Shown: one piece after another, positions 796 to 48,989 of the stretch
Layout of the letters: every line of letters begins with the position of its first letter
Position numbering within the stretch: the stretch's first letter is position 1
Assembly (NCBI RefSeq): GCF_004010195.1
Contig: NC_057754.1
Coordinates: 5,381,781-5,445,780, forward strand
From: Chiloscyllium plagiosum
Lineage: Eukaryota
DNA: 64,000 nt
Direction of reading: 5' to 3'
The notes under the pieces: generated by a model
Told to the model about the DNA's origin: nothing
What the model saw: the letters and a program-made list of their open reading frames with translations, nothing else
Databases searched by the model: none
Translations under genes and position numbers: made by a program

Positions 796-1642
796 ATGAT
801 GTCCAGCCGATGTAGCTTTGCCTGCGTGCATGGGATAGCTATGGAGGGATATGGACCAAACACAGAGCAAATAGTTTAAATTGTGAAAACTCTGCAGCAT
901 GGACAAGTTGGACTGAAGGGGCCTGTCTCCATGCTGTAGACCTCTATGATTCTGTGAGTGTGTCTACAAATCGCACTTTGTGAAAGAGACAACAGGAGGA
1001 ACTAACAAGTTTCAGTAAGTCAATGGTCAATGGCAACTATTTAACAGCCAAATAGATTGCAGGAGAAGTGGATGCTGGTAAAAAGTTTTACAATTTGTAC
1101 ATCCTTCTGGATCGTGTGGACGGACCCTCAATCTCTTGTTCTTATTTAATTCATTTGAGGGATATGGGTTGGCCAGCATTTCTTGCCCGTCCCTAGTTGC
1201 CCCCTTGAGAAGGTGGTGGTGACCTGCCTTCCTGAAGCGCTGCAGCCCACCTGCTGTGAGCTGACCCACAATGCCCTGAGGGAGGGAATCCCAAGATTCT
1301 GACCCAGGACAGCAAAGGAATGGCCGATATATTCCCAAGTTGGGATGGGGAGTGGAGGGAAACCCGAAAGTGGTGGTGTTCCCGTGAATCTGCTGCCCCT
1401 GTCCTCCTAGATGGAAGTAGTCGTGGGTTTGGAAGGTGCTGTCCAAGGAGCCTCGGGGAGTTGCTGCAGTGCACCTTGTAGATGGTACATACTGCTGTGA
1501 CTGATGTCAGTGGTGGAGGGAGTGGACACAAGTGGAAAAAATGCCAATTATTATAATTTGATTTGAAATGCTTCTAAAAAGACAGAGGGTTGCTGCGTAC
1601 ACCACTGCTAGAGAAAACTGAGAAGACTGTACCCCCTAATTA

Positions 1643-1951
1643 TAAGGGACTGTTTAACCAGACTTTTCAAATGTTGATGACTAATATAACATTGAGCAAT
1701 AAACTCACCCAAGCCCCCACCAACCGCAACTCCGTGGCCTTCCTTTCGCAGTGTTTAGACTTGTTCAACCAGGTTAGAGAGAAAAAGCAAGGTCTGTTAT
1801 CACCAGCTTAAACATTACTTAAATTTATGGATTAATGATCAGTTCAGCCCCAAAGGCATTCCATCTCTGCTACAGCCTCTCCGTCAGTGTCATGATCTCT
1901 CCCTCAGCCACAGTCCTTCTCCTTCAGTGCTGCCATCTCTGAGCCGCAGCC
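1643..1951 (+). promoter_or_regulatory. Gene A proximal promoter/5'UTR block with two HNF1-like sites (1807-1819, 1831-1843)
   Basis: Aligns with 47891-48206 upstream of gene B. CTTAAACATTACT and ATTAATGATCAGT resemble GTTAATNATTAAC, and HNF1 is an established regulator of mammalian OAT1/OAT3/URAT1 promoters. Confidence 0.6.
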
Positions 1952-2353
1952 ATGGGGTTCGAAGATATCCTGGAGGATGTCGGAAGTATGGGGAAGTTCC
2001 AAATCATCCACATTTTGTTGCTGGTGTTGCCATCGTTTCTCTCACCTAGTCACAACCTGCTTCAGAACTTCGTGGCTGTTGTTCCTGATCATCACTGCAG
2101 GATCCCTTTGGAAGTGAATGACTCGAGGTACGCCAATGTCACGGGGAGGCTGCAGACGGAGGAACTTCTCCGGGTTTTCATCCCTCTGGACCAGGACCAA
2201 CAGCCGGAGAAATGCCTGATGTACTCCTCACCTCAATGGCACCTTCTGGATCTCAACGGGACGCACGCAAACGTGACTGAGTACCACACGCAGAAGTGCA
2301 CTGACGGGTGGACCTATGACAACTCTAAGTTCAAAGCCACAATTGTCACAGAG
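1952..2353 (+). CDS. SLC22A6-like: Gene A exon 1 ([11 protein letters not shown]...KATIVTE; TM1 and large extracellular loop)
   Basis: Kozak gcagccATGG. Typical SLC22 N-terminus, four N-glycosylation sequons (NDS, NVT, NGT, NVT). Donor GAG|gtaacc at 2354. Confidence 0.95.
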
Positions 2354-5300
2354 GTAACCCCTAAGGATTTCTATCTATTGAAGGTTTCAATGCCATTGAA
2401 TATGTTGTGAAATGGAACGAAGGGGTTTATCTGAGTGTGTACACACCTTTTCTTGCTGAGGGGTTTTTAACTCAACCAGCGGGTAGTGTTTGCAGGAGAT
2501 GGACCACAGATAAAGGTGTGCCTTTGTTTAGTCTGAAGGGCAAAGTGATTCCTGATAAAGGAGTGAAGTCTCAATGCTTATTTTTCGTCCTACATTACCT
2601 CATCTCATTTCGGTAAAACAAACAAAGACAGGACTCATACAATTAAAAGGTCCTTGGGTAAGGTTGTAGAACAGAGAGAGATTAGATTAGATTACATTAC
2701 AGTGTGGAAACAGGCCCTTCGGCCCAACAAGTCCACACCGACCCGCAACCCACCCATACCCCTACATTTACCCCTTACCTAACAAACGTGCAAACTCCAC
2801 ACAGTCAGTCGCCTGAGGCGGGAATTGAACCCGGGTCTCTGGCGCTGTGAGGCAGCAGTGCTGACCACTGCGCCACCATGCCGCCCACGATTTAGGGCTT
2901 CAGCTACATACTTTTCTGGTGTTTGCTTCACATGTGAACAGGCTAGTCAGGAAGGCATTTAGCACGCTTGCCTTCATTACTGAGGCCTTTGAGTATAGAA
3001 GTTGGGATGCAATATTGAGGATGGACAGGACATTGGTGAGGCCCCTTCTGGAATACTGTGTCCAGATCTGGTCACCCTTTTACAGGAAAGATATTATTGA
3101 AGTCTTAGGTGCATTAGTCAGAGGGAAATGGTCTGGGTGGGTAACTCTTCGGAGGGTTGGTGTGGACTTGTTGGGCTGAAGGGCCTGTTTCCACACTGTA
3201 GGTAATCTAATCTAAACTGGAGAGGGTTCAGAGAGCTTTACCGGGATGTTGCCGGGTACGGAGGGTTTGAGTCATAAGGAGAGGCTGGATAGGCTGGGAC
3301 TTTTTTCACTGGAGTATAGGAGGTTGCGGGGTGAACTTATTGAGATTAATAAAATCATGACAACTATAGATGAGTGACAAGTATCTTTTCCCTATGGTGG
3401 GGAGGGTTTTACGACCAGGGGGCCGCATTTTTAAGGTGAGAGGAGAAAGATTTTAAAAAGACCTAAGGGGAACTTTTTTTTGACACAGAGAGTAATTTGT
3501 GTGAGGTAAAGTTGCAACATTTAAAAAACATTTGTATAAGTACATGAATAGGGAAGGTATATGGGCCAGGAGCAGGCAGGTGGGACTAGTTTAGTTTGGG
3601 AATATGCTCGGCACGGACTGGTTGGGCCGAAGGGTCTGTTTTCATGCTGTATGGCTCTATGATTCAATGAGTGACAGCAAATGAACATACAAATAAGGAA
3701 CACTTGGAGGCCATTTGACCCCTTCAAGGTAACCTACCATTTAATAAGAACGCAGCGGATCTGGTTATAACCAAATTCATACTCCTATCTCCTCCTGATA
3801 AAATTCCACCCTCTTGCTTTCCGAGAATCGGTACATTCCTACCTTAAAAATATTCAGAGGTTCTGCTTCTACTGTCTTTGGATGAGAAGAGATGTGAAGG
3901 TGCATGATGAATCTGTGAGAAATTTCTTTACCTCCATGTGTAAAACATGACAGGGTTCAGAAAAGATTTACAAGGATAATGCCAAGGTTAGAGGGCTTGA
4001 GCTGTAGGGAGAGGCTGAATAGACTGGCACTGTTTTCCCTGGAGTGTTGGAGGCTGAGGGGTGACCTTATAGAGATTTACAGATAGGGTGAATAGGCAAA
4101 GTCTTTTCCCTGGGATGGGTGAGTCCGAAGCTAGACGGCATAGATTTAGGGTGAGAGGGGAAAGATTCTAAAGGGATAGAAGGGGCAACTTTTTCACGCA
4201 GAGGGTGGTGCATGTATGGAATGATCTGCCAGAGGAAGTGGTGGAAGCTGGTACAATGTCAACATTTAAAAGGCATCTGGATGGGTATATGAATAGCAAG
4301 GATTTAAAGGGATATGGGCCAAGTGCTGGCAAATGGGACTAGGTTAATTTAGAGTATCTGGTCAGCATGGACAAGTTGGACCGAAGGGTATATTTCCATG
4401 CTGTACAGTTCTGTGACTCTATCTCCGTCTTAAAAGGGCCTCTCCTTACTTTGAAACAGTGACTCCTGGTTATTGATCCTCCCATAGCGGACAACATCCT
4501 TGCCACATCTTCCTCATCAGGATCTTAAATGTTTCACTCAAAACACCTTTTATTCCTCTTAGGTCTGGCAAATGCAAGTCTGTCAAGTCTTTCCTCATAA
4601 GACAACTTGCTCGGTCAAGGTTAATAAACCTTTACTGGACATCTTCCAAAGCATCAACAATTCTTCCATTAGTCAGAGCTGAAAATGTGTTGCTGGAAAA
4701 GCGCAGCAGATCAGGCAGCATCCAGGGAACAGGAGAATCGACGTTTCGGGCATAAGCCCTTCTTCAGGAATGATGCCCGAAACGTCGATTCTCCTGCTCC
4801 CTGGATGCTGCCTGACCTGCTGCGCTTTTCCAGCAACACATTTTCAGCTCTGATCTCCAGCATCTGCAGACCTCACTTTCTCCTTCCGTTAGTCAGGTGA
4901 CCAATACTGTAAATAGATGGGGTCTTCCCCATATAAGTGAAACATGACCTCCTTATTTTTGTATTTCATTTCCCTTGTAATAAAATACTTGCATTCTATA
5001 AACTTTCCTAATTACTAGTACCTGCATTGCAGCCTTTTGTGATTCCCCTGCTCCTTAGAGCGCTGAAATCTCTTACATGCGTCTTTTTAGTCGCCTTGCT
5101 AAAATGGACACTTTCGCATTTTGTCACATTATTCTTTAGAACAAAGAAAATTTCCAGCCCAGGAACAGGCCCTTCGACCCTCCAAGCCTGAGCCAATCCA
5201 AACGTACTGTCTAAACCAGTCGGTCATTTCCTAAGCATCTGTATCCCTCTGCTCCCCACCTACTCATGCATCTGTCCAGACGCATCTTAAATGAATCCAC

Positions 5301-8300
5301 CGTGCCTGCCTCTACCACGTCTGCTGGCAACGCGTTCCAGACACCTACCACCCTCTGTGTGAAGTACTTGCCGCGTGTATCCCCCTTAAACTTTTCACCT
5401 CTCACCTTGAACGCGTGACCCCTCGTTATTGAACCCCTCACCATGGGAAAAAGCTTCTCTCTATCCACCCTGTCTATACCCTTCGTGGTTTTGTAAACCT
5501 CAATCAGGTCCCCCCTCAATCTCCTTTTTTCTATTGAAAATAAACCTAACCTACTCAACCTCTCTTCACAGCTAGCCCTTTCCATACCAGGCAACATCCT
5601 CGTTAACCTTCTCTGCACCCTCTCCAAAGCGTCCACACCCTTTTGGTAATGCGGCGACCAGAACTTTACACAGTATTCTAAATGCGGCCGAACCAAAGTC
5701 TTGTACAATTTTAACATGACTTGCCAACTCTTATACTCAATACCTCGTCCGATGAAGGCAAGCATACCATATGCCTTCTTGACCACTCTATCCACCTGTG
5801 CAGCAACCTTCAGGGTACAATGGACCTGCACTCCCAGATCTCTCTGCCCATCAACTTTGCCCAAGGCTCTTCCATTCATTGTATAATTCGCTCTAGAATT
5901 AGACTTGCCTAAATGCATCACCTCACATTTGTCTGGATTGGAAGCCATCTGCCACTTTTCCGCCCAACTCTCCAGTCTATGTATATCCTCCTGTATTCTC
6001 TGACAGTCCCTTATGCTTTCTGCCACTCCTCCAATCTTTGTGTCATCTGCAAACTTGCTGACCATACCAACAGTGCCCTCTTCTAAATCATTTATATATG
6101 TATATCACAAACAACAGTGGCCCCAATACTGATCTCTGTGGAACACCACTGGTCACCTTTCGCCATTTCGAGAAACTCCCTTCAACTACTACTCTCTGTC
6201 TCCTGTTGCTCAACCAGTTCCTTATCCACCTGCACGCCATGTGACTTCACTTTCTCCATTAGTCCACAATGGGGAACCTTATCAAACGTCTTACTAAAGT
6301 CCATGTTTATGAAATCAACAGCCCTTCCTTCATCTAACAACTTGGTCACTTCCTCGAAGAAATCTATCAAGTTGGTAAGGCATGATCTCCCCCTCACAAA
6401 ACCATGTTGCCCAACACCGATCAGCTCATTCCTTTCCAAATAGAAATAGATCCTATCTCTCAGTAACCTCTCCAGCAACTTCCCCACCACCGACGTCAGG
6501 CTCACTGGTGTGTAGTTACCCGGAGTATCCCTACTACCCTTTTTGTACAGGGGGGACAACATGAGCAACTTTCCAGTCCTCTAATTTTTGCCCCTCACTT
6601 ATAGAGTCATACAGCACGGAAACAGATCCTTCGGTCCAACCAGTCTATAATCCTAAACTAAACTAGTCCTACCTGCCTGCTCCCGGCCCATTCATGCACT
6701 TATCCAAACCTTTCCCATTCATGCACTTATCCAAACCTCTCTATAAACAGTGTGTGCACCACTTCCTCAGGAAGTTCACTCCACACGCGGACCACCCTCT
6801 GTGCAAAACAAAATTGCCCCTTGTGTCTTTTTTAAATCCCTCTCCTCTTACCCTAAAACTGTGCCCACTGTGTCTTGAAACCCCTTATCCTAAAGTAAAG
6901 ACAACTGCCCATTAACCCTATCTGTGTCCCTCATGGCTCAATGGTTAGCACTGCTGCCTCATGGCACCAGACACCCGGGTTCAATCCAAGCCTTGGGCAA
7001 TTGCCTGTGTGGAATTTGCACGTTCTCCCTGTGTCTAGGTGCTTGGTTTCCTCCCACAGTCTAATAATGCGCAGGTTAGGTGGATTCGCCATGGGAAATG
7101 CCATTCCAGGGATGGGGTAGCAGGGTGGGTCTGGATGGGATGCTCTGTGTGGACTCGATGGGCCAAACGGCCTACTTCCACACTGTAGGGTTTCTATAAG
7201 TGAGGTACAAATCTTAGATATAAAAGAGGAATTAAGAGAAAATTAATGGCATTACATTACAGGGTTTAAAGAATAAGTTAGAAATAAGACATAGTTACAG
7301 GATTGACATTACAGTCAGAACAACAAATTGCAAATAAACACTACAGTGCAGCAGCTCAACATGTGATGTGACCGCCCGCACTAGAGCCAGGTCCAGTAAT
7401 TGTCCCCGCTCCACTCCAAGCCTGCAGTCCGCTCCGCACCAACTCTCAGCTGTTCCAAGGTAAGTTCCAGGACTGCTTCCCCCTTGCTTCCCACTGTCCT
7501 GGGGCTGCTTCCCCGCCTCTATAACCCCCCCCCACCTCCACCGGTGCTCCGGGATTCGCCTCCGGGGCTCGCCAGCTCCTCCATTCCCCTGCCACAGAAG
7601 GGGGAAGGAACAGAAGAGAAAAGAAGAAAGAAAAAGAACGCTCAGAGCAGAGGACTACTTACTCTGCCACCAGCTGGCTTTCGATCTCGGGGAGCCCTTC
7701 CTGCTCATGATGTTGGATGGCGCATTGGGAATGCTGATGGTCACGCCGATTGGTTGTTGTCACGTGTACCAAGATACGGCGTGCTGTCCAGGTAAATCAC
7801 GTCACACAGACTGCATCGGGGTAGCAGAACAGAGTGCAGGACACGGTGTCACAGCCAAAGGGAGGTGCAGGGTCAGCGAGATCAGAACTAACATTCGGGA
7901 GGTCGATTCAGAAGTCTGATAACCTCGTGGGGAAGAAGCTGTTCTTGAATCTGTTAGTAAGTGTTTACAAACCCTTATCCATTCCGCCTGACGGAAAAGG
8001 TGGGAGGGATTATAACCGGGGTGGGAGGAGTCTTTGATGATGTCGGCAGTGGGAAGTGTGGATGGAGTCAGTGGATGGAAGGTTGGTTTGTGTGATAGAC
8101 TGGGCTGTATTCACAGCTCTCTGTAGTTTCTTAGAGTCCTGGGCAGAGCAGTTGCCGTACCAAGCTGTGATGCATCCTGAAAGGGTACTTTCTATGGTGC
8201 ATCTATAAAAATCAGTCAGAGTTCTTGTGGGCATGCCGAAGTTCCTTAGCCTCCTGAGGAAAGTAGAGGCGTCGGTGCTTGGTCAGTAATTTGATCTCCG

Positions 8301-11300
8301 CGTGCCAATTTTGCAATGCCAAACTCTGCAAAAAAAAAGGATTTGCAGACAATAGGCAGAAAACTGCTGAATGAAATTGTCAGCATTCCTGCCACATCTC
8401 TGAGTTAAGGACACCTTGGAGATTTCCCATCACAATGCAGTAGCCAACATTTGGCTGTTGGGGCTGGGATGAGTATCTAACCTCCTGATTTTCCACTCCA
8501 TACGTCCCCCCCAACAACCAACTGTCCTATTTGTGTAGGCCTTATAAAACTCACCTCTGTGTGTGTGTGTGTGTGTGTCTCTGTGTGCTTGTGTCTCTGT
8601 ATGTCTGTGCCTGTGTCTGCCTGTGTGTGCGCGCGAGTGTGTGTATGCATGTGTGAGTGTGTGTTTATGTGATCATGCGAGTGTGTGTGTATGAGAGACT
8701 GGGTGTATGTTTGTGTGTGAGTGTGTGTGTCGATCTGTGTGTGTGTATGTGTCAGTCTGGGTGTATTTGTGTGTGTGTGTGCGTCAGGCTGTGTGTGTGT
8801 CAGGCTGTGTGTGTGTCTGTGTCTGCGCATGTGTCAGTCTGTGTGTTGTTGTGTGTGCATGTTTGTGTGCGCATGTCTGTGTGTGATAGTGTGCAGTGAC
8901 CTTTACACTATCCTAAAAATTGCTGAGGAAACAAGAGCTTTTTGCTCCTTGATAATGAAACAAAACTGCCAAGACCTACATAATGATCAGTTCTGAGCTC
9001 ACTGGGTCAGCATGAGTGTGGTCAAAACAATCTTTAACCTGTCAAAGAAACAGAAATTCTACTTAAATCCACAATGAATAATCCATCCCCCACTGAACAC
9101 CTAGAAATCATTGCACAGCAGTGGAGTGAGTAAGCCATATTGTCATAGACTAAGGGGATGTCAACACTATAACATAGAATCTTTTTCATTCCCTGGTGAA
9201 TTAATTCTCATTTGTTGGAGTTACAAGATGGAAAAATAAAATCACCCTGCACATTCTTGAAAACCCCAGAGAATATGGGCCTAAAGTGCTCAAGCTCTTC
9301 CCAAGACAAACCTTCTCATCCCTCACATCAACTGAGTGAACCTTCTCTGAACTGTCTCTAACTGAATTACATCTCTCCTCAAGTAAGGAGACCAAACCTG
9401 TCCTCAATACGCCAGGTGTGGACTCATTAATGCCTTGTACAGATGCAGCAACACTTCCCTATTTTTATACTCCATTCCTTTAGCAATAATGGAGGGATTC
9501 TATGAAATAAAAAAAAAGTGAAAAGCTCAGCAGTCTTGCTTAAGCGCTGAGCCATGCCTGGCCCAGACTTTCTGCAAGGGATCGATCTCCTCCTCTTTGG
9601 CCCACGTTCCACTCACTGGCTCAGTCTCGCCTACCCTCATCATCGGAGGAATCTCCATTGCCATGTTGGGCTTGTTCCCTGGATTTCAGACCACCAATAT
9701 GACAATAACTATTCTTGTCATGACAGTGGGACCTTGTCTGCAACTGGAAATCCCTGAAGCGGATCACACAATCGATCTACATGGCCGGATTGCTGGTGGG
9801 AGCCATTGTCCTGGGCAGGCTTTCTGACAAGTAAGAGAGGCCGGGAGTATTGCGATGCCAAGCATTATGTCAACTCAGTGTGTTTTCCGGGGAGGCGATG
9901 GCCAAGCGGCATTTTTGCTGGAATTACGAATCTACTCTTGACCATAAATCCATTGTCAATTGCTGGGAAAAACCCATCTGGTTCACTAATGTCCCTTTAG
10001 GGAAGGAAACGGCCTTCCTTAACTGGTCTGGGCCTACACGTGACTCCAGACCCACAGCAACGTGGTTGACTCTTAACTGCCCCTCTGGCGGGGGGAATGG
10101 CTCAGTGGTTAGCACTGCTGCCTCACAGCACCAGGGACCCAGGTTCAATCCCATCCTCGGGCAACTGTCTGTGTTGAGTTTGCACGTTCTCCCCAGAGTC
10201 TGCATAGGGTTTCCTCTTACAATCCAAAGATGCGCAGGTTAGGGTGGATTGGCCGTGCTAAATTGTCCCATAGTGCCCAGGGATGTGCAGGCTTGGTGGA
10301 TCAGCCATGGGAAATGCAGGGTTACAGGGTGGGTCTCTCTTCAGAGGGTCGGTGTGTGACTCAATGGACCGAATAGCCTGCTTCCACATCGTAGGGATTC
10401 TATAATGTAGTTGCGACAGCTCAGTGTTGACATACAGGTTGGAGAGAGCACGCATTTAAATGCAGACAAGCTATAAAAGTTCTGCACAACATCAATTAAA
10501 AGCTGAATTGAGCGGGTTCCAAACATTGACCATATCACCAGGCAGGTGAATGACTAACCCAAGACTATTTTGTAACAGTTAACCGCGTTGTTTTTTTTAT
10601 TTTGAATTCATGTTTACTGGGTGCTTGTTACAGGTTCGGGAGGCGGACTTTCCTGCTGTGGTCCCATTTCCAGTTAGCTGTCTCCGGAACCTGTTCTGCG
10701 TTCGCCTCCTCCTATCCCTTATTTTGCTTTTGGAGGTTCCTCTGTGGAGTGGCACAGTCGGGGATCATACTCAATGCTTTCTCCCTCAGTAAGTGAAATG
10801 ACGTGTACGTTTGTCAGCTCAAGCCCATTCCAACAGAACAGAATGTAATCGTCCGTCTTTGATGTTCAATAGCATGGCCATTTTTGAATCTCCCCAAGCG
10901 TTACCATTGTTCTGGAACGTAATCAAACCAACTGTTGAGGCCTGTTGTGGTAGCGTCCATACCTTGGGACCAGGAAATTGGGTTTGAGTCTTACCTGTTG
11001 CACAAGTATGTTGTAATACACCCAGACGAGTTAATTGAAAATAACTACACCAGCTATTATGAATGCTACGAGAGCAAGTAAGAGGCTGGGAGTTCTGTAG
11101 TGAGTAACGTCTCACCAATTCCCCCAAAAATCTGTCCATAACGCAGAGTTCTCAACATCTCAACAAGAGAATCAGATCCAGGCTTGTGCTGGATATTGTC
11201 CCCTTTATCCTTTAAGCAAGCTGCCCAGCTCCTTGTTCTCCCTCTCTTTCTCCCACTCATAAGGTCTCACTAACTTACAAAGGTTAAGAAGGTTTTTAGC

Positions 11301-14300
11301 ATGAGATTAGATTAGATTCCCCTACAGTGTGGCAACAAGCCCTTCGGCCCAACCAGTCCACACTAACCCTCCGAAGAGTAACCCACCCAGATCCATTTCC
11401 CTCTGACTAATGCACCGAACGCTAGCACGCTTGCCTTCATTACTCAGACCTTTGAGTGGAGGAGTTGGGCCGTCATATTGAGGTTGTACAGGACATTGCT
11501 GAGGCCTCTTCGGGAGTACTGTGTCCCGTTCTGGTCCCCCTGTTATAGGAAGGATAGTATTAAGCTGGGGAGGGTTCAGAAAAGATTTACCAGGATGTTG
11601 CTGGAAATAGAGGGTTTGAGTTACAAGGAGAGGCCGAATAGGTTGGGAAGTTTTTTTCACCAGAGGTTGAGAGGTGACCGTATTGAGGTTTGTAAAATTA
11701 TGACGGGTATAGATAAGGTAGATGGCAGGTGTCTGTTCCCTTGGGTGTGGGATTTCAAGACCAAGGCGCATATTTTTAAGGTGAGAGGAGACAGATTTAA
11801 AAAAGACAACTTGGAGAGTTTTTTTTTATACAAGAGAGTTGTTTGTGTGTGGAATGAACTTAAACCTCAATTCTAAACCTAAAACTAGTCCCCTGTGCCT
11901 GCACTTGGCTCATATCCCTCCAAGCCTTTCCTATCCACTACATATCCAAACGTCTTTTAAATGTTCTAACTGTACCTACATCTATCACTTCTTCTGGAAG
12001 TTCATTCCACATACAAACTCCCCCAGTTGTCTTTTTTAAATCTCTCTCCTCTCGCCTTACAAATGTGTGCCTTCGTCTTGAAATCCCCCATCCTATCCAC
12101 TACATATCCTTCATAATTTTATAAACTTCAATAAGGTCACCTCTCAACCTTCCATGCTCCGGGGAAAAAAGTCCCAGCCTATTCAGCCTCTCCTTTTAAC
12201 TCAAGCATACCCGGCAACATCCTGGTAAATCTTTTCTGAACCCTCTCCAGTTTCATAACTTCCTCCCTATAACTGGACGACCAGAACTGGGCACAGTATT
12301 CCAGAAGAAGCCTCACCAATGACCTCAACATGACGTCCCAGCTCCCTAAACTCAAAGGTTTGAGAAATGAAGGCAAAAATGCGAAACACCTTCTTAACCT
12401 TCATATGTTGTGGATTCCTTGGGCACTGGGGTATGGGATTAATGTCAACAGCATATGGTTCAGTTTGCAACTCCAGATGGGTTGAATTTGGGAACTGCCT
12501 CCTTGCCCTTACCCGTGGAAGGTATCATCGTTGTTGTGGGTTGGGTAGGCAAGTGAAGAACCTAAAGGAAGTTCCTTAAATGTGCTCTGATGAGGCTCAT
12601 GATTTTCCAAATCAGTATTGGCAGAAGCTGCTCCGATTCGTTCAGTTTCTTCCACCTGTCTTTGTGCTTCTGCAGAGGTCGAATGGATCCCAACAAGATT
12701 TCGAACGCCTATTTCAATGCTGAGTGGTTTTCTTTACACCTTTGGTCAACTACACCTGGCTGGTTTAGCGTATGGAATCCAAGACTGGCGGTGGCTTCAG
12801 TTCACAGTGTCTCTACCTTACTTCATTTTCTTCCTTTACTCTTGGTACGTTCACATTCTACTGGTCTCCTTCACAGATTGCACCATCGATCAGTACATAC
12901 GAGGGAAAGGTTAGGAGAGGTGGTGGAACTCACTCTGGTAGGATTCTGGGTAATCCAAGATGGAGGACGGGAGAAAATTGTGGCTGTGGCAGCTGCTCCT
13001 TTTCTGAGGTATTTTCAGTGTTGCAGCTGATTTTCTCGAACGCTTGGAGCAGTAATTGCCTTTTTATAAGCTGTTGCGTTGTTTTGGAATGTTGTAAATA
13101 AAAAGAGATCAAACAGCGGCATTTTAAAATGGTGAGAAAGAGTGAGGGAGAGAGAGAACAGCTACCAGGTACCAAGAAAGATCAGTGAACCTTCATAGCG
13201 GTCTGACCAGGCAGTGATCCTTCACAGCTGACTGCCTCTGCTGTTAGTTTCAAGCATCTTTGGACATTGGAGTTCTTCTAAGAAAAATAAACAGACAACA
13301 AAATTCACAGTTGATCTTGGAGAAATCTTTGTGGGGGAGCTCAAGGTAGAGGAACAGCTAAATGTTTTTTTAAAAAGTGTAACTTATTGTTTTTTGTTTG
13401 TAAATCTATAATTGGGAGTAGAGAAGGTGTTTTTGATTATATGTTTTATTGAGGTAGAGTCATAGAGTTATAGAGATGTACAGCACGGAAACAGACCCTT
13501 TGGTCCAACCCGTCCATGCCGACCAGATATCCCAACCCAATCTAGTCCCACCTACCAGCACCCGGCCCATATCCCTCCAAACCCTTCCTATTCATATACC
13601 CGTCCAGATGCCTCTTAAATGTTGCAATTGTACCAGCTTCCACCACTTCCTCTGGCAGCTCATTCCATACTCATACCACCCTCTGCGTGAAAAAGTCCCT
13701 GTAGCTCAGATCCTCCAACCCTGGCAACATCCTTGTAAATCTTTTCTGAACCCTTTCAAGTTTCACAACATCTTTCCAATAGGAAGGAGACTAGAACTGC
13801 ACGCAATATTCCAAAAGTGGCCTAACCAATGTCCTGTACAGCCACAACATGACCTCCCAACTCCTGTACTCAATAATCTGACCAATAAAGGAAAGCATAC
13901 CAAACGCCTTCTTCACTATCCTATCTACCTGCGACTCCACTTTCAAGGGGCTATGAACCTGCACTCCAAGGTCTCTTTGTTCAGCAACACTCCCTAGGAC
14001 CTTACCATTCAGTGTATAAGTCCTGCTTTCCCAAAATGCAGCACCTCTGCATTTATCTGAATTAAAGTCCATCTGCCACTTCTCAGCTCATTGGTCCATC
14101 TGGTCAAGATCCTGTTGTATCTGTGTCTTGATTAAACTTTTTTTAACGTAAGTATTAAGTTATTCTAGGGCAGTGTTTTTAGAGCAGTAAGACTAGGCTA
14201 TTTTCTGGGTCTGTAGATTGTTAAAGTGCAAGACGGCCTTTAGTAGAGTGATGTGGGAGATTATGGAGAGTTTCCACGTTCCTGATGATTATGTCTGCAG

Positions 14301-17300
14301 GAAATGTCTTTGGTTGCAAATCCTATCAGATCACATGGATTGTTTGGAGCAGCAGCCAGAGGCAGTGAGGGATTTACATGAGCTGACGGGTATGATGGAT
14401 GGTACTTGCAGGAAGGTAGAAAAATCACAGATCCAGTCAGGTAGGTGGGTTTTCTTGAGGAAAGGTAAGAGAAGTAGGCAGGAGTCTCCTATGGCTATCC
14501 CTATCTCAAACAAGTACACAGGAACCTCAATTATCCAAACGAGATGGGCCGGCAGTATGTCACTCGCATAACTGATTATTCAGATAATCGATTTGACCTT
14601 AAACAAGGGAAGCCATACTGATCTAATGCTGGAGAGTTTGTTTAAATCTATAATTTTGAGGAGTTTGCTATTTAAACAATCTAATCTTTGTGTTCTGCAA
14701 ATTGCAGGTTACACTGAGAAGGGCTAAACCCTTACCATCACATAAATATATGAAATCTCAGCATTAAGCAAGGTCCCGAACAGCTTCTACAATTGCAAGA
14801 GCATTTGTCAGTTTCTGCTGAACTCAGTGTCGCGATAGAAAGACATAAGTGCCACCTTGCGCATGTGTTTACTTTCCCTGTCATTTTTTTCATGAATGGT
14901 CCAGTAAAGTGACAGGAATAAAGCACTTACTTTTGCAAAGGGCTGTGTAACTAACCTTTACGTCAGAAATATCCAGTCGCTGATGCTTGTGGTGCTTGTG
15001 TACTTTTGATTTTTTGCCAGTGTTTTCACACGTTCTTCAGTACAGGTTGTCCAAATTCACTTTGATGTAATGTTTTTAACGGGGACCTTGAGATCTTGTT
15101 TGGATAATCCGAAATTCGGATTATCGGATAATCAAGGTACTACTGTATGCTGTTTTGGAAAATGTAGGGAATGATGGACTCTCAGGGGAATGTAGCACTG
15201 ATACCCAGGTTTCTGGTAGTGACACTGATGCTACATAATGAGGGGCATGTCAGGAGCAAGTGACTGATTGTGATAGCGGACTCTCTAGTCAGAGGTACTG
15301 ACATTTCTGCAGCTGACAATGAGGCATCAGAATGGTGTGTTACCTCCTGATGCCAGCATAAAGGGAACGTCAGAGAGGGCGCGGAGGGGAGAGAGACCAG
15401 CAGGAGATCGTTTACACATTAGGATTAATGACATGAGAAGAGGAAAGGACGAGATTCTGAAGAGAGAATATAAGAAATTGGGCAGGAATTTAAAAAGGAG
15501 GTCCTCGAGATTAGGAAGAACTGATTACTCCCGGTGCCATGAGGGTAGAAATAGGAGGTTGGAGCAGATGAAAGTGTGGCTGAGGAGCTGGTGCAGGGGA
15601 GAAGGATTCACATTTTTGGATCGTTGGAATCTCTTCCCAGACCTGTATAAGAAGGACAGGATTGGAAGGGGATTAATATACTGCTGGGGGATTTGCTATA
15701 ACTGCTCGGGGGGATTTAAACCAGTATGGAGAGAGTGGGATGGGGAGGCCAGAGACATAGTGAGAAAAGAGATCAGTCTGAGGCTGGTACATTTGGGAAA
15801 AGGAGGTAAAATTGATAAATTAAACTGCATTTATTTCAATGCAAGAGGGCTGATAGGTAAGGCAGGGCATGGTTGGGAACATGGGACTGGGACATCATAG
15901 CGATTAGAGACGTGGCTCAGGGATGGACAGGACTGGCAGTTTAATGTTCCAGGGTATAGATGGATAGATAGGCAGGAAAGGAGAAGGAGTGCTTTTTCTG
16001 ATTAGGGTTAACAATACGGCGAGTACTTAGGGAGGATATTCCTGGGAATATGTCCAGAGAAGTTATTTGGGTGGAACTGACAAGTAAGAAAGGGTGATCA
16101 CCTTATTGAGATTGCACTATAGCTCCCCCCTCCCACCCCCACCCCCCAATAGTCAGCGGGAAATTGAGAAGCAAATTTGTAAGGAGTTCTCAGCTATCAG
16201 GAAGAATAATATGTGGTAATGGTAGGGGCTTTTAATTTTCCAAACATAGACTGGGACTGGCCTAGTGTTAAGGGCTTGGGTGGGGAGCAATTTCTTTTGT
16301 GTGTAAAACGTTTCTGATCCAGTAAGTGGATGTACCTACTAGAGAAGATGCAAAACTTGACCCACTCTTGGGAAATAACGCAGTGGAGGGAGCACTTTAG
16401 GGCCAGTGATCATAATTCTATTAGTCTTAAAATTGTTATTGGAAAGGATAGACCCGATCTAAAAGTTAAAGTTCTAAATTGGAGAAGGGCCAATTTTGAT
16501 GGTGTTAGCCAAGAACCTTCAAGAGCTGACTGGGGGGGGGGGTGCGGATATTCGCACATAAAGGGACAGTTGGAAAATGGGATAACAAGAGTCCAAAGAC
16601 AGTATGTTCCTGTTAGGGTGAAGAGCAAGGCTGGAAGGTGTAGGGAATGCTGGACGACGAGAGAAATTGAGGTATTGATCCAGGGAAAGAAGGAAGCATA
16701 TGTCAGGCATATATCAAGTGAATCCCTGGATGAGTACAAGGGAATATACTTAAAAGGGAAATCAGTAGGGCAAAAAGAGGACATGAGATAGCTATGGCAA
16801 ATAGGGTTAAGGAGAATCCAAAGGTCATTAAGGACAAAAGGGGAACTAAGGAGAGAATAGGGACCCTTAAAGATCAGGGTTGGAGGGATTGAGCTATGGG
16901 GAGATGCCTGGAGTTTTGGAGGCTGAGGGATGGACCTTCTAGAGATTTATAAAATCATGAGGGGCATGGATCGGGTGTATAGCCAAGGTCTTTTTTCCCA
17001 GGGTAAGGGAGTCCAAAACTAAAGGGCATAGGTTTAGGGTGAGAGGGGAAAGATTTAAAAGGGACCAAAGGGGGCAACATTTTCACGTAGAGGGTGGCGC
17101 GTGCATGGAATGAGCTGCCAGAGGAAGTGGTAGATGCAACATTTAAAAGGCATCTGGATGGGTACATGAATTGGAAGAGTTTAGAGGGATATGGGCCAAT
17201 CTCTGGCAAATGGGAATAGATTGATTTAGAATATCTAATTGGCATGGACGAGTTGGACCAAAGGGTCTGTTTCTGCGCAGTACAGCTCCGTGACTCTATG

Positions 17301-20300
17301 ACTCTTTGAGCTTGTTAGAGAGGTTAGGCAAGATGATTAAACAAACTAGTTAGTTAGAAAGGTTAGAAGAGATGGTTGAATTAAATAGTTAGACAAGTTA
17401 GACGAGATGGTGCGACTAACAAGCTAGTTAAGAAGGTTTGAGGGATGATGGAACTAACATTTATTGCCAATCCCTAGTTGCCCAGAGGACCAGTTAAGAG
17501 TCTACCACATGGCTGTGGGTCTGGAAACATATGTAGGCTAGACCAGGTAAAAGGGGAGCAGACTTCCTTCCTTAAAGAACATTAGTCAACCAGGTGAACT
17601 TTTCCAACAATTGACACTTAATTACATGGTCCTCATTAGACCAACTCGTTTGTTTTTTAAATTCAAGATTTTAAATTGAACTCAAATCTCACCATGGCAG
17701 GATTACGGGCCCATGTCGCCAGAACATTAGCCTTTCTCGGTCGCATTTACGTTTTAGTTTTCTTCTTTCACTGCTCTCTTTCCTTTCTTTAACGTACTTG
17801 CTTTCTGTGGAGAGCGGGTTTGTGCAAGGCAGAGGAGAGCGAGCCATCATGGGGAGAATGAGTCCAACATGATGGTGAGAGCAGGCACTCCCAGGTCTCC
17901 TGGAGAGTGAGTCAAAATGGAGGAGCTTAAGGTCATACAGGGAGTGCAAGCTCAGCATGACTCAGCACTTCAGAAAAACTTTTGAACTTTTAACTTTATT
18001 TCTTTTTTTTTCTACTTAATGCTAAGATAGCTGTGAAGTCTAACTTTTAACTTCTTTATCTTTCTACTTTATACTAAGAGGGACTGTAATGTTTAACCTT
18101 TTACTGTTTTTCTACTTTGTACCCAAGATTTTGCACCTAGGTACTTTTGTGCCTAAGATAATGCTGGGAATGGCTACGTTGTATACTTTTCGCTGTACTC
18201 CTGTACCTGAGTACACGTGACAATAAAATCTAATCCCCATTCAACGTCCTATTCATGTTTACGTCCAAAATGGGGTACTTACAAAAGCTTAATGTGTAGT
18301 TGTTATCTGAACAACTACTCAGTTAGCAAGTAACCCCGTGTAAAGGAAGAGAATTGTGAAAATAGGATGTGGTATTGAGAATTTATCCTTCTTTTCCATC
18401 TCTGTGCTGTGGCACCCTCCTAAATGATCTGAAGTTGCCTGAGCGATTTTTTTTTCCCCACTGTTGCGATAATAACCCCTATGTATGTGTGTGTGTGGTC
18501 GTTCTCAAAAGGTGGTTCCCGGAGTCTGCTCGCTGGCTCATTCTGAACGACAAGGCTGATGTCGCTCTGAAACAGCTCAGGAGAGTGGCAAAAATGAATG
18601 GCAAGGAGGAGGAGGGGGAAAAACTCACTATCGAAGTAAGTGATGGTCTTAAAAGTGTGCGTTTTACACTGAAACTCACCCCAGCTTGGTTCCATCACTG
18701 AACCGATGGTCTTTACCCTAATCTTGCAGAGACATATTGTTAGGGCAGCCCGTCCTGATGAAGGGCTTATGCCCGAAATGTCAATTCTCCTGCTCCTCAG
18801 ATGCTGCCAGACCCGCTGTGCTTTTCCAGCACCACACTTGACAAATTGTTCCAAACCTTGGAATGGAGCCAACATCATCAAAGACTCCTTCCACCTCCAA
18901 ATGTAATCTCTTCCAACCTCTTCTGTCAGGCAGCACATACAAAAGTTTAAACACGTGTCCCAACAGATTCAAGAACAGCTTCTTCCCTGCTGTTATCAGA
19001 CTCCTGAGTGGACTTCTCAAATTTCAAACTCATGTTGATCTCGCTGTCTGTGCACCTTCTCTGGAGCCATAACATTGTATTCCTTGCTCTGTTCTATCAC
19101 CCTAATGCGCTTTGTATGGTATGATCTGCCTGTACTGCACGCTCAAAACAAAACTGTCCCTCGGTACGTGTGACAATAATAAATCAAATCAAATCAAAAT
19201 ATATTAACACAGCCTAGATCCTAACGTTTCTTTATTTTAACAGTAAGTGTAAGATGTTGTGTTCCAGATGCAATTCAATTGGTCAAACTTCTCGACTTTA
19301 ACACTTTACTTTTACACTACAGTTAAAATACAGGCAAAATAAAACTCAAAAGAAAAGAATCAGCTTAATTGTAACTATTGAAATGCTTAACAAAATAATA
19401 TATATATATAAAAACTACTAATTAACTGTTCCAACTGAGTAACGTCCCATAAACACACCCTTGGCAAAGGCAAGTTTAGTAAAATAGATTGTCTCACAGG
19501 CAATTCAAGCAGCAAAAACAGAACCCCAGCTTCTCACTGTAACACATAGAGGAAGAAGAGCTTCCACATCCAGCTTCAAGACCCCAGCAACTGCTACTGA
19601 AAACTAGAACTAAAAACCCTGGTTCTGTGGGAGCTTGACCCCACCCATCCAGGCTGCTTCTATTGTTCCAACATTTAAAATCAAGCCCCCAGGCCTCACA
19701 AGCTGCTTGCTTCATTGGTTTTGAGCAGACTGCTTGTCTCAATCTTTCTTCATTACAAAAAAAAAAGAGGACAAAATAGACCTCGTGAAGTCACGCGATA
19801 TTATTGCAATATTTCAGTTGTTTGACATTCTTAGGATCCTGTTAGAAGATATCGCACCTCAATGTTTCAGAGTAGCAAACAGAAATGGCGGGAGATTGAA
19901 GAGGTTAGTTGGGTTCGAAGGCTTCGCTTCAGACCAGCTTGCTCTGGTGTACACTTGGAAGAAACTGGCAGCCTTCCAGCCATGCTGGTGCCATCCAACT
20001 AGGGAGGAGAGATGGTATTTTACATCCGCTACCCTCAGACTAACCTTATCTTCTCCCGCACTCACTCATGTTGGTGGCTCTCTATACACTGAACTTCAGT
20101 TTCATGTCCATGGTTTTGTCATCACCCTTGTTTGTTGTAATACACCTTAAAGAGCACTAAGCTACGGAGCGTTTATGTCATAGAGTCATACAGCACAGAA
20201 ACAGACCCTTCATTCCAACTAGTCCATGCCGAACATAATCCCAAACAAACCGAGTCCCACCTGCCTGCGCTTGGCCCATGTCCCTCCAAACCCTTTCCTA

Positions 20301-23300
20301 TTCATGTCCTTATCCAAATGTCTTTTAAATGTTGTAACTGTATTCGCATCCACCACTTCCTCAGGAAGTTCATTCCGCACGTGGACCACCCTCTATGTAA
20401 AACACAATTGCTCCTCGTGTCTTTTTTAAATGTTTCTCCTCTCACCTTAAAAATGTGCCCCCCCCCCCAGTCTTGAAATCCCCCACCCAAGGGAAAAGAC
20501 GTCAAGCATTAACCCTATCTATACCCCTCATGATGTTATACACGTCGATAAGGTCACCTCTGAACTGCCTACACTCCAGTGAAAAAGGACCCAGCCTTTC
20601 TTTATAACACAAACTTGTAGGAGAAGGGGACACACATTTTAATGACATTATGTCATAGCCTTGGGTGTGTGTTTCACAGATTCTGAAGTCAAATATGGAA
20701 AGTGAACAGTTGGTCAACAACAACAGGCGCAGTGTGTTAGATCTGTTCCGGACTCCTGTCATGCGCAAGATAGCCTGCTGTACCATGCTTGTTTGGTAAG
20801 TTGTTGGGAAATATTTGTTTGCTTTTCAAACGTATGGCAGCAAATGTGGATCATGATTTTTCCTTAACTAGGAGACGATGGCTGAAAATTGGCAGATGGA
20901 ATTAAATCTGGATAAATACGAAGTGTTACATTTTGGTACACGGCTGGGGCTTATACAATTAATGGTTGGATTTTGGGGATGGTTGTAAAACAGAGGGACC
21001 TAGGGTTTCAGGTGCATAATTCCTTGAAGTTTGCATCACAGGGTGGTTAAGAAGGCAACTCGCACGCTTGCCTTCATTGCTTGGGAGTACAGGAGTTGGG
21101 ACGTCATGGTGGGGTTGTACAGGACATTGGTGAGGCCTCGTCTGGATTACTGTGTCCAGTTCTGGTCACCCAGTTACGGGAAGGATATTATGAAGCTAGA
21201 GAGGGTTCAGAAGAGATCTACCAGGATGTTGCCGAGAATGGAGGGTTTGAATTATAAAGAAAGGCTGAAACATCTTATACTGGAACATAGGAAGTTGAGA
21301 GGAGACCATATAAAACTTTATAACAGTCATGGGAGCTATAGATAGAGTTAACAGTAGTTGTCTTTTCCCTAGGGTGGGGGAATTTCAAGACTCGGACATA
21401 TTTTTAAGGTGAGAGGAGAGAGATTTATAAAATATATGGGAGCAAATATTTTTAACAGAAGATGGTTCCACATGTGGAATGAACTTCCAGAGGAAGTGGT
21501 GGATGTGGGTACAGTTACAACGTTTAAAAGACATTTGGATAAGGACATGAACAGGAAAGGGTTTGGATGGATATGGGCCAGGACCAGGCAGGAGGGACTA
21601 GTTTAGTTCAGCGGTTTTGTTCAGAATGGACCGGTTGGACAACATGGTGTGTTTCCGTGCTGTATGACTCTGTGAGCAGGAGATGCCGATGGGCATTATG
21701 TAGCAGGGAAACACTGTTATACTCAATGAGTCGTCAATGTTGATTACAGATTCAGGAATCTAAAATAAGGCTTGACTGCATGAACTCCTGATTCCAAGGA
21801 GTAGGTTTCAGTGGTCTTATACTCAGAAACCAATATTTGCTCATTTGAGACTTTAGCCAACAAGACAACAGGAGACAGAAAAGTGCAGAAACTAAGGAAA
21901 CTTTGCTGAGACTATAATTAATACCTATTAAAACATGGCAGCAACGTTATGGGCACACTTTGGATCTTGCTTCCTGGTTCAGTTCGAAGAGTAGAGTCAC
22001 AGCATCTTGGAGATGTATAGCATTGGAACAGACGCCTTTCATTTGACAGCATTTGGAGATGTATAGCATTGGAACAGACGCCTTTCATTTGACAGCATCT
22101 AAACCCTTCCTATTCACATACCCATCCAGATGCCTTTTAAATGTTGTCATTGAACCAGCCTCCACCACTTCCTCTGGCAGCTCATTCCACACACACACCA
22201 CCCTCTGCGTGAAAAAGTTGCCCCTTAGGTCTGTGTTTAAATCTTTCCCCTCTCACCCTAAACCTATGCCCTCTAGTTTTGGACTCCCTGGGGAAAAAGA
22301 CCTTGGCTATTCACCCTAACCATGACCCTCATAATTTTATAAACCTCTATAAGGTCACTCCTCAGTCTCCGACACTCCAGGGAAAACAGTCTCAGCTTAT
22401 TCAGCCCCTCCTGATAGCTCAATCCCTCCAACCGTGGCAACATCATCATAACTTCCAGGTGGCTCAGTGGTTAACACTGCTGCCTTACTGCACTAGAGAC
22501 CCCGGATCGATCCCAGCCTCGGGTGACTGTCTGAGTGGAGTTTAGACATTTTCCTCGTGTTCTGTGTTTCCTCCCGCAGGCCAGGTGAATTGGCCATGCT
22601 AAATTGCCCATGGTGTAAGATGCATTAGTCAGAGGGGAATGGGTCTGGGTGGGTTACTCTTCCAAGGGTCGGTATATACTTGTTGGGCCGAAGGGCATGT
22701 TTCCACGCTGTAGGGTATCTAATCTAAATGTTTTCTGTACCTTTTCAAGTTTCACAATACTCTTCTTATAGCAAGGTAACCAGAATTGAACGCAGTATTC
22801 CAAAAGTGGCCTAACCAATGTCCTGTACAGCCACAACATGACCTCCCAGCTCTTATCCTCCATGCACTGACCAATAAAGGCAAGGCTACCAAACTCTGAC
22901 TACCTATGTCATGATGTTGGAGTACTAAAGTCCAGGTTGGCTACTGTTAAACAGAAAACTATAATATTAGATTGATCTATAAATTATTACCTTAAATGTG
23001 TGATTATAACTAAACTGAAATCAACCATGAGACATTATTTAGTTCCCTACTCATCCTTCAGAGGTGAGGATGTCACTACTGAACCAAGGCTGGCCTGTCA
23101 TTGGGTAATAACAGAATACCAGACAGTTACTGCCGGTCTGTAAATGTGGTCATGGGGGAGCCAGTCCTTCAGGTCATGAGCAGAGAAGCCATGATTGTGG
23201 AAGTGCCAGGGTTGGACTGGGGTGGACAAAGTCAGAAGTCACACAACATCAGTTTATAGTCCAACAGGTTTATTTGAAATCACAAGGTTTCAAACACGCT

Positions 23301-26300
23301 GAATAGGTTGGGGCTGCTCCTTCGTCAGGTGAAGTGGTACATGACGGCCTCATAATGTTACGACTAGACCGTTAATCCAGGGAGGAAATGAGGACTGCAG
23401 ATGCTGGAGATCAGAGTCAAAAAGGTGTGGTGCTGGAAAAGCACAGCCAGTCAGCCAGCATTCAAGGAGCAGGAGAGTCGACGTTTCGGGCATACGCTCT
23501 TCATCAGGAATTCCTGATGAAGAGCTTACCCTCGAAATGTTGACTCCCGCTCCTCAGATGCTGCCTGAGTGGCTGTGCTTTTCCAGCACCACACTTTTTG
23601 ACTGTTAATCCAGAGATCCAGTAAATGGTTCCGAGGACCTGGGTTCAAATCCAGCCGTGGTCAACGGTTGAATTTAATTCAATAAAAGTGTGTGGAATCA
23701 GAGGGCAGTCAAGAATCAGCCATGTTGCTATGGTCTGGAGTCACACGTGGGCCAGGTAAGGATGGCAGTTTCCTTCCCTAAAGGACATTAGTGAACCAGA
23801 TGGGTTTTTACAGCAATTGGCAGTGGATTCACAGTCATCATTAGACTCTTAATTCCAGATTTTTTATTGAATTCAACGTGCACTATCTGCTGTGGTGGGA
23901 TTCAAACCCAGGTGCCCAGAACGTTACCTGGGTCTCAGAACTAACAGTCGAGCGATAATTCCACTCAGCCATTTCCTCTCCTGAGACAGGCTTCTCACTG
24001 AGAACGAGAATCAGAAGGTTTATTCACAAAGCAACACCCTTAATGGATTACAAATTAAAGATGCGACTAGGCAATCACATGGCAAGGTGTTACACAGATA
24101 TCAAAGGATCCCTACAGTGTGGAAACAGGTCATTTGGCCCAACAAGTCCACACTAAACCTTCGAAGACCATCCCACCCTATCCCTGCAACCCCAACACAT
24201 CCCATGGCTAATCCACCTAGACTGCACATTCCTTGGACACTATGGGATAATTTAGCATGGCCAATCCACCCTAACCTGCACATTCTGGCTATTGAGGGAG
24301 TGCAGTGTAGGTTCACGAGGTCAATTCCTGGAATGGTGGGACTATCTTATGTTGAAAGATTGGAGCGACTGGGCTTGTATACTCTTGAGTTTAGAAGACT
24401 GAGAGGGGATCTGATTGAGACATATAAGATTATTAAAGGATTGGACACTCTGGAGGCAGGAAACATGTTTCCGCTGATGGGTGAGTGCCGAACCAGAGGA
24501 CACAGCTTAAAAATAAGGGGTAGGCAATTTAGGACAGAGTCATGGAGAAACTTCTTCACCCAGAGAGTGGTGGGTGTGTGGAATGCTCTGCCCCAGAAGG
24601 CAGTGGAGGCCCAGTCTCTGGATTCGTTTAAGAAATAGTTGGACAGAGCTCTCAAGGATAGTGGAATCAAGGGTTATGGAGATAAGGCAGGAACAGGATA
24701 CTGATTAAGGATGATCAGCCATGATCATGATGAATGGTGGTGCAGGCTCGAAGGGCAGAATGGCCTACTCCTACACCTATTGTCTATTGTCTATCTTTGG
24801 ACTGCGGGAGGAAACCGGAGCACCCGGAGGAAACGCACACAGACACGGGGAGAACATGCAAACTTCACACAGACAGTCACCCGAGGCTGGAATTAAACCC
24901 AGGTTCCCGGTGCTGTGAGGCAGCAGTGCTAACCAATGAGCCACCGTGCTGCTCTCTTAAAGGTACATGCTTGCCTGCTCATAGACACACGCATCACAGT
25001 GTGGTACGGCAACGGCTCTGCCTAAGACTGCAAGAAACTACAAAGAGTTGTGAACATAGCCCAGTCTATCCTGAAAACCAGCCTCCCTTCCAGTGAATCT
25101 CTAGAGTCTTTTCCCGAGGTTGGGGGGCTTTCAAGACTAGGGGCATATATTTTTAAAGGTGAGAGGAGAAAAATTTCAGAAGGATATAAGAGGCAACTTG
25201 TTTACACAGCAGGTGGTTCATACATCGTATGAACTTCCTGAGGAAGTTGTGGATGTGGGTAGAGTTACACCGTTTAAAAGACATTTGGATAAGTACATGG
25301 ATAGGAAAGGGTTTGGAGGGATATGGACCAGGAGCAGGCAGGTGGGATTAGTTTATGGTCGGCATGGACTGGTTGGACCAAAGGGTCTGTTTCCATGACG
25401 TATAACTCTATTCCATGCATAGTGACTGGCATCAGCACGCTATCACAGCACTGACGTCCGATCCCAAAAGTCGCTGTTGCAAGCACATCGGAGGCAATTA
25501 TCAGTAAGGAAAATTAAAGGGAATGCTGATCCTTCTCTTTGCTGTTGTAGGTTTTCGACCAGTTTTGCCTATTACGGGTTGGCGATAGACCTGCAAGGAT
25601 TTGGAGTTGATATTTACCTCATCCAGCTGATTTTCGGAGCTGTAGACATCCCAGCGAAACTGCTTGCATTTCTCTTCATGAGCCTGATCGGAAGAAGGTT
25701 CACACAAGCCACTTCACTTATCCTGGCAGGGAGCTTTAACCTGGTGAACATCTTTGTCCCAAAAGGTAAGGGTTAATAGTCACAGAACTTGGTCAATTTT
25801 TACCCCAGTTGAGAAATGTTCCACCCCCAGAGGGATGTTCCACAGGTAAGATGTAAGAACTTACGATTGAAGATGCTATAGCAATGGCATGTTGATGAGT
25901 AAAAGGTCATTGGGCAGAGTCTACATGGTTTAGAGAAAGGACAATCATGTTTAGTGAACAATTTATTGAAGTTCTTAATGAAGTAATGTGCATTGTGCAT
26001 AATGGGGAATCAGTGGATTTATGTTTTTAGTTACTCATTAGTGGGATGTGGGTGTCACAGGTTGGGCCCGGCATTTCTTGCCCCTTGAGAAGGTGGTGTT
26101 GAGCTGCCTTCTTGAACTGCTGCAGTCCACCTGTTGTAGGTTGACCCACAATGCCCTTAGAGAGGGAATTCCAGAATTTTGACTCAGCGACAGTGAAGGA
26201 ATGGCTGATATATTTCTAATTCTGGATCAGTGGTGCTGGAAGAGCACAGCAATTCAGGCAGCATCCGAGGACAGGCATAATCGACGTTTCGGGCAAAAGC

Positions 26301-47860: not shown

Positions 47861-47890
47861 TAAGGATGCAGAGAAGGTAGTTTTATATAG

Positions 47891-48206
47891 AAGGGACTGT
47901 TTAATGAAACTTCCCAAATGCTAGTGACTAATATAACATTGAGCAATAATTCACCCAAACCCCCACCAACCACAACTCCATGGCCTTCGTTTCATAGTAT
48001 CTAGGTTTGTTAAACCAGGATGATTAAGTTAGCGAGATTAAGCAAGTTCTGTTATCACCAGCTTAATCATTACTTACATTTATGGATTAATGATCAGTTC
48101 AACCCAACAAGCATTATGTCTCTGTTACAGCCTCTCCGTCAGTGTCATGAGCTCTCCCTCAGCCACAATCCTTCTCCTTCAGTGCTGCCATCTCTGAGCT
48201 GCAGCC
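47891..48206 (+). promoter_or_regulatory. Gene B proximal promoter/5'UTR block with HNF1-like sites (48062-48074, 48086-48098)
   Basis: Homologous to 1643-1951. Sites CTTAATCATTACT and ATTAATGATCAGT. Confidence 0.6.
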
Positions 48207-48608: not shown

Positions 48609-48989
48609 GTAACGCCTGAGAATTTCTGTCTATTAAAGGTTCCAGTGACATTTATTGTGAAATGGAAGGAAAGTGAATAAATGGATGCGTGTCCCCCAAA
48701 ATAACCTCACACCTGTGAGGTGTTTATAAGTAAAACACCCATGCATATGTGCACATCAACCCAGTGTCCTCAAAATTTCCCAAAGGGTAAAGGTGTGGCA
48801 TTAAGGTATAACGGTTCTACGCTCCTCTTCATGCCTAATCCGCTAATTCCAATGGGTCAAAGCAAAGGCATCTGAACAACCCTGTTACTGTCAGCCAAGG
48901 GCTCAGCTCATAGCATCATTGAGCATGGAAATAGACTCTCAGTCCGAGTGGACCCCATTTACCTCTCCACCCCTGAGGATCCCAGCCTC

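Follow-up and report, generated by a model that had tools for sequence, protein, structure and literature searches.

Interlocus gene conversion of the extracellular loop in tandem SLC22A6-like genes of the bamboo shark and other cartilaginous fishes

We have found that two tandem genes of the bamboo shark, referred to here as A and B, share most of one extracellular loop to the last nucleotide, and that this sharing is almost certainly the product of interlocus gene conversion. The genes are, as judged from their sequences, old SLC22A6/OAT1-like paralogs, whose proteins differ at about one quarter of their amino acids overall. The original prediction was of an old tandem duplication with recent interlocus gene conversion of the loop; tree and read checks support both parts, although 'recent' understates a process that has taken place again and again, in each of the carpet-shark lineages that we examined and in the majority of cartilaginous fishes.

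Both genes lie in the 64-kb stretch of DNA analysed here, which we call the window (Table 1). Comparison with OAT1 structures (E = 5.7e-180) assigns them to the OAT group of SLC22 transporters, with an MFS fold and an extracellular domain between TM1 and TM2, and a structure model of gene B (112 sequences, pLDDT 82) places TM1 in a helix at residues 15-41 and the start of TM2 at residue 139. The equivalents of OAT1 residues Asn35, Tyr230, Tyr353, Tyr354, Phe438 and Arg466 are conserved in A and B, and family membership predicts that both are organic-anion transporters. The translation of gene A equals the second half of a fused Chiloscyllium plagiosum model, XP_043538936 (P0110), whose first half represents a third paralog, C. 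For gene B, exon 1 translates to residues 1-134 of XP_043538650 (P0106), and no exons of gene B after exon 2 were found within the 64-kb window. Between the genes is a gap of 697 N (43105-43801), hence their 46-kb spacing is approximate. We note that P0110 (1192 aa) and a model from Heptranchias perlo, P0003 (1133 aa), each fuse two tandem paralogs; these are probably annotation errors, which hide gene A.

Table 1. Coordinates of the genes, the shared tract and its surroundings within the window
Feature	Position	Strand	Remarks
Gene A, SLC22A6-like	1952..36011	+	563 aa, 10 coding exons, all introns GT-AG
Gene A, exons 1-5	1952-2353, 9727-9830, 10634-10788, 12676-12844, 18512-18635	+	
Gene A, exons 6-10	20680-20795, 25551-25765, 30403-30511, 33967-34170, 35918-36011	+	
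Homology block, gene A	1641..2421	+	from the upstream region through 5'UTR and exon 1 to base 68 of intron 1; 88.9% identity to gene B
Divergence island, codons 25-33 in TM1	2024..2050	+	15 A/B differences in 27 nucleotides
Converted tract, gene A copy	2080..2338	+	last base of codon 43 to end of codon 129
3' tract edge, codons 130-132	2339..2347	+	residues 130-131 Thr-Ile in A, Ser-Thr in B, in all four carpet sharks
Exon 5 of gene A, first half of intracellular loop	18512..18635	+	not homogenised here, with 8 A/B differences in 42 residues
Matching homology block, gene B	47888..48671	+	
Gene B, SLC22A6-like	48207..55853	+	exon 1 48207-48608, exon 2 55750-55853
Converted tract, gene B copy	48335..48593	+	identical to A copy

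A tract of identity within a diverged gene pair

The two copies of the tract are, as first reported, 100% identical over exactly 259 bp, with a mismatch at each side. The tract codes for residues 44-129, most of the extracellular domain, including three cysteines and four predicted N-x-S/T sequons; it starts 2-3 residues past the modelled end of TM1 and stops 15 bases short of the splice donor, and across its 86 codons there are 0 silent differences. It lies in a homology block of 781 bases, with 88.9% identity between A and B overall. When the A/B differences were permuted, 0 of 100,000 permutations reached a run of 259 bases; the longest was 149 for the 76 events in 781 bases and 165 for the 27 differences in exon 1. 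The counts originally given for codons 25-33 (Table 1) and for exon 2 (17 of 104 nucleotides different) were confirmed, the former island being flanked by only 4 differences in codons 1-24 and 3 in codons 34-43. The alignment of the first introns, said to end about 70 bp past the donor, ends after 68 bases (2354-2421, 78% identity), the other 18 plus-strand hits between the introns being non-colinear, as expected of dispersed repeats; past exon 2, the sole further exon that can be compared within the window, homology extends only 16 bases into the intron. We saw no clear signature of GC-biased conversion when GC3 of the tract (0.71) was compared with that of exons 2-10 (0.58 pooled, 0.74 for exon 2 alone), and the CpG profile was not discriminating either.

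Comparison of the A and B orthologs of four carpet sharks shows that the loop follows the species and the rest follows the gene. At residues 44-128 there are 18 sites with a species pattern and 0 with a gene pattern, and outside them 7 and 64, respectively (Fisher p = 1.6e-13, with sites treated as independent). Within a species, A and B differ at 0, 1, 2 or 3 of 85-86 loop residues and at 103-123 of 478 outside the loop. Orthologous loops differ between species at 5-17 of 85 residues, and purifying selection therefore cannot explain the identity of the A and B loops. Trees agree with the grouping by species that conversion predicts: for the loop, grouping by gene is rejected (AU p = 2.9e-7), and for residues 1-43, residues 129-563 and exons 2, 5, 8 and 9 it is grouping by species that is rejected (AU p <= 0.011). 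Orthologs of B are also present in white shark, cloudy catshark and smooth-hound (FastTree support 0.99, non-loop region), so the duplication is older than the split of these orders.

Near-identical repeats can be mis-polished, and an N gap lies between the two genes. That the identity is an assembly or polishing artefact, or the result of plain purifying selection on a loop that is not in fact conserved between species, nevertheless seems to us scarcely credible. Four read sets (X3, X4, X9 and X15) were compared with copy A at 80% likeness, as short-read contigs from which rare variants are dropped. In X3 (organism A) and in X9 a single contig of exactly 259 letters spans positions 2080-2338 with 0 other letters, and in the contig graph A-type and B-type contigs end at 2109 and two contigs start at 2309, giving two paths in and two out. 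The X4 set, from another study, has a contig across the tract with 13 other letters, which equals the A/B difference count for 2339-2397; the in-tract letters, among those listed for X4, come from a piece with 18 differences in 107 that probably belongs to a further paralog. Contigs of samples S2, S3 and S7 show no second A/B version of the tract. In X15 (organism B) one contig of 198 letters covers 2110-2307 with 7 other letters and two paths at each side, and the 5 listed of these 7 letters give residues of C. punctatum proteins; the sister species thus carries its own shared version of the tract in both genes. The independent contig graphs therefore agree that the identity is not a product of mis-polishing, and the pattern recurs in the annotations of 16 species. 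The 0 differences in 259 bases bound A/B divergence at 1.1%, against 7 in 198 between the sister species, which would make the last A/B exchange younger than about a third of the sister-species split.

We note two peculiarities of the read sets. The X4 piece mentioned above (record 20, window 2159-2265) continues in a manner unlike paralog C and is probably a fourth paralog with an escaped loop. X9 is labelled organism B, yet its A-type contigs have 0 other letters relative to the window (1779-2353), unlike those of X15, also labelled B, and a conflict of species labels is possible.

Reach of the exchange along the gene and across species

Conversion extends past the loop, into the 5'UTR and the intron. 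In X15 the change 1949 G>A in the 5'UTR is at full depth, in both copies, and in intron 1, among the listed letters, both copies are B-like at 2359, 2363, 2366 and 2390, with 2339-2344 in exon 1 still different; at an assumed 2%, at least 4 changes in 44 bases have p = 0.01. Exon 5, of only 124 bases, is apparently a second, sporadic site of conversion in zebra shark and elephant shark, to judge by its paralog differences of 1 in 42 residues in the former and 0 in the elephant shark pair. We also note a variable letter of copy A at window position 1945: it is C in the window and likewise in X9, but T, the letter of copy B, in X3 and X4, and X15 has C in both copies. This is possibly a B-to-A conversion in the 5'UTR that is still segregating; the position is a CpG site, and recurrent mutation could also explain it. 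Residue 174, in exon 3, is Ser in B and C of both Chiloscyllium species and Thr in B and C of epaulette and zebra shark, and in this exon B and C are only 12% different; this one site gives a hint of B-C exchange.

To determine how widely the pattern is distributed, we compared 59 chondrichthyan sequences, which form 65 within-species pairs, 51 of them more than 15% apart outside the loop, with nine isoforms, fragments or unnamed records excluded (P0004, P0009, P0026, P0030, P0040, P0046, P0098, P0108 and P0111). A pair was scored as converted if its loop divergence was less than half that of the rest. The converted pattern was found in 31 of the 51 old pairs and in 16 of 18 species, among them rays, a skate and the elephant shark (a chimaera), counts that are at the protein level, rest on automated gene models and concern pairs that share history and are not independent events. 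All 17 pairs that are 35-50% apart outside the loop still share the loop, some of them although residues 1-24 have drifted to about 40%. In the 19 old converted pairs divergence is 0.39-0.50 over residues 1-30, 0.06-0.28 in 41-140 and 0.36-0.38 from 141 onwards. The 20 pairs that do not qualify include all 8 with the carpet-shark paralog C, whose loop is 34-49% different from those of A and B, and all 5 horn shark pairs; escaped loops are also found in some horn shark and smooth-hound paralogs. Unconverted loops evolve faster than the rest, 30 of 86 loop residues having changed in paralog C compared with 35 of 336 elsewhere.

As a control we used 70 reptile, amphibian and coelacanth proteins, hand-picked from the matches listed so as to avoid isoforms; in a comparison aimed at mammalian URAT1/OAT4-type loops, the best 120 of 225 matches comprised only reptiles, coelacanth and an amphibian. 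The pattern was present in 0 of 35 old reptile or coelacanth pairs from 25 species, and in these pairs the loop is the most divergent region (0.48). As for mammalian tandem pairs, human URAT1 and OAT4 have strikingly similar sequences in this loop.

What maintains the shared loop

We think it probable, on balance, that conversion sustains itself in a part of the protein without paralog-specific function, and that TM1, including residue 31, resists it. Exon 1 and its upstream flank would be the one long block of homology left (about 780 bases), in which repair may copy gene onto gene, each event renewing the identity that the next one requires. Tracts within the loop would be tolerated if the loop does a job common to the paralogs (folding, glycosylation, surface delivery); those reaching over TM1 codons 25-33 would wipe out a substrate pocket peculiar to one paralog and hence be purged, and purging would leave a peak of divergence between homogenised flanks, the outcome expected where selection maintains differences between paralogs in the face of conversion (PMC3924837). 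The 3' limit of the tract, which lies at the exon end and not at the domain end (the model places the start of TM2 further on), would mainly be the end of exon homology. More tentatively, a low mutation rate in sharks, reported as 7e-10 per generation (PMC10587355), might let conversion outrun divergence with an occasional escape such as paralog C, and the reptile paralogs would all have escaped; the low rate is a plausible reason for sharks keeping what reptiles lost.

Residue 31, which aligns with Met31 of human OAT1, is Ser or Ala in A and Leu in B, and in OAT1 the substitution M31A raises the IC50 of glibenclamide from 2.4 to 11.4 uM (PMC11827633). Several points weigh against the reading that we favour. 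Of the 16 pocket residues taken from the OAT1 literature (PMC11827633, PMC10643130), 2 differ between A and B (31 and 361), which is no more than the background of 64 in 478, so that no enrichment of these 16 residues among the A/B differences was found and divergent specificity of A and B stays putative. That the loop is still shared by 17 of 17 of the most diverged pairs, with some 260 bases to sustain the exchange, goes beyond what one would readily expect under a neutral model. Conversion can, moreover, be blocked by a diverged patch in a mechanical way, with no selection involved.

This last possibility can be taken further, with the limits of the tract set purely by homology and sensitivity to mismatches, and with a TM1 that diverged early by chance and blocks tracts ever since. 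The lack of enrichment of pocket residues would suit such a neutral account, as would the loss of intron homology and the fact that exon 1 is the longest exon. We nevertheless consider it improbable: the island is rich in replacement changes and sits between homogenised stretches of one exon, B orthologs from three shark orders have retained the B-type TM1 motif (residues 32-36), and the second exchange site, exon 5, also encodes a non-membrane domain and has so few bases. Equally hard to credit is that a pathogen or toxin targets the loop, which then evolves adaptively, conversion spreading escape variants as in CEACAM N-domains. Between C. plagiosum and C. punctatum the loop has indeed changed faster (7 of 85 residues) than the rest (13 of 478 in A, p = 0.02; 17 of 478 in B, p = 0.07), and the listed X15 tract letters all fall in residue-changing codons, but relative to zebra shark there is no excess (p = 0.09 and 0.51), so that only 1 of 4 comparisons has p < 0.05, and the counts are too small to reject neutrality. 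Unconverted loops, in paralog C and in reptiles, are faster still, which fits relaxed constraint, and we know of no SLC22 protein that serves as a pathogen receptor.

Selection for identical loops as such, if co-expressed paralogs pair through the loop or share a chaperone or an extracellular partner, is in our view unlikely, yet it has more in its favour. The low-divergence zone of the 19 old converted pairs closely fits the domain, the most diverged pairs without exception still share the loop, and A and B contigs occur together in one probable RNA run (X9), in which the B contig joins exon 1 to exon 2. The SLC22 extracellular domain has been linked to trafficking and dimerisation (PMC11827633), and a reference title in PMC4633038 describes the loop of OCT1 as 'pivotal' for oligomerisation. 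However, there are escapes, in paralog C and in certain paralogs of horn shark and smooth-hound, none of the reptile or coelacanth pairs shows the pattern, exchange reaches the 5'UTR and intron, the 3' edge lies at the exon end, and purified human OAT1 is a monomer (PMC11827633). The purpose originally suggested, of keeping trafficking or oligomerisation surfaces compatible, stays putative, with the escape of paralog C, the lack of homogenisation in reptiles and the monomeric state of OAT1 against it. It is possible, though doubtful, that functionally different OAT paralogs have had one shared domain since before the split of sharks and rays, and that this domain binds a partner that requires identity; candidates would be a sister subunit, a chaperone, or a pathogen or toxin. 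If true, the cluster would consist of transporters that have one head in common but differ in their pockets, and it would give a clue to what the SLC22 extracellular domain does, the exact role of which has been described as unresolved (PMC11827633).

Relation to known systems, and repeats in the window

The type of process is known. As in mammalian TLR1 and TLR6 (PMC2077338), one region of tandem paralogs is closer between paralogs than between orthologs, and each species has undergone conversion on its own, within almost identical limits; a need for shared partners is what the authors of that study propose. Whereas the TLR1/TLR6 region comprises about 300 residues of a single-exon-type coding region including TM and TIR (PMC2077338), here it is an 86-codon loop of a 12-TM transporter, between TM1 and a splice donor, and the pattern is clade-wide and has a reptile control. 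In the primate CEACAM N-domains (PMC8860441), too, paralogs of a cluster have repeatedly converted an extracellular domain, but there bacterial ligands and positive selection have been shown. Our island in TM1 codons 25-33, between homogenised stretches of one exon, resembles that of the red/green opsins (PMC3924837), in which a selected island of divergence outlasts converted flanks. In the opsins, however, homogenisation includes the introns, and conversion can act on most of the gene (PMC3924837), whereas here intron homology is lost and only exon 1, and sometimes exon 5, exchanges. With human and rat OAT1 (PMC11827633, PMC10643130) genes A and B have in common a 12-TM fold and a glycosylated extracellular domain between TM1 and TM2, but they differ from human OAT1 at the equivalents of Met31, Ser203, Met207, Ile226, Ser231, Phe346, Asn439 and Phe442, and sharks have at least three tandem paralogs.

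The SLC22 case in sharks is itself unreported in the literature that we searched. Among the matches listed, which were covered as titles and the starts of abstracts, with subscription journals and supplements outside the scope, there was no report of conversion in SLC22 or in the shark cluster; in the main text of a paper on SLC22 evolution (PMC4633038) the word 'conversion' occurs 0 times, and no shark Slc22a6 was found there. These sharks offer natural chimeras, the same loop being carried by transporters that are 20-45% different elsewhere, with escaped paralogs as controls, and the sites that resist conversion (TM1 25-33 and residues 130-131) are candidate specificity residues in a family of drug transporters. 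The contrast between sharks and reptiles within one family could also serve as a test of whether mutation rate sets the lifetime of concerted evolution. In practice, exon 1 is a treacherous guide for anyone who assigns orthology, dates events, maps reads or designs primers in these genes.

Lastly, the window contains two kinds of tandem repeat. A 23-base minisatellite of about 80 copies occupies 57671-59553, in intron 2 of gene B; the C. punctatum model P0040 translates the same minisatellite as a false exon, and the array is therefore common to both species. Related arrays of a 52-53-base unit, with 2-5 copies each, lie at 30992-31150, 32976-33248, 35140-35373 and 46286-46402 and are probably part of a dispersed repeat.
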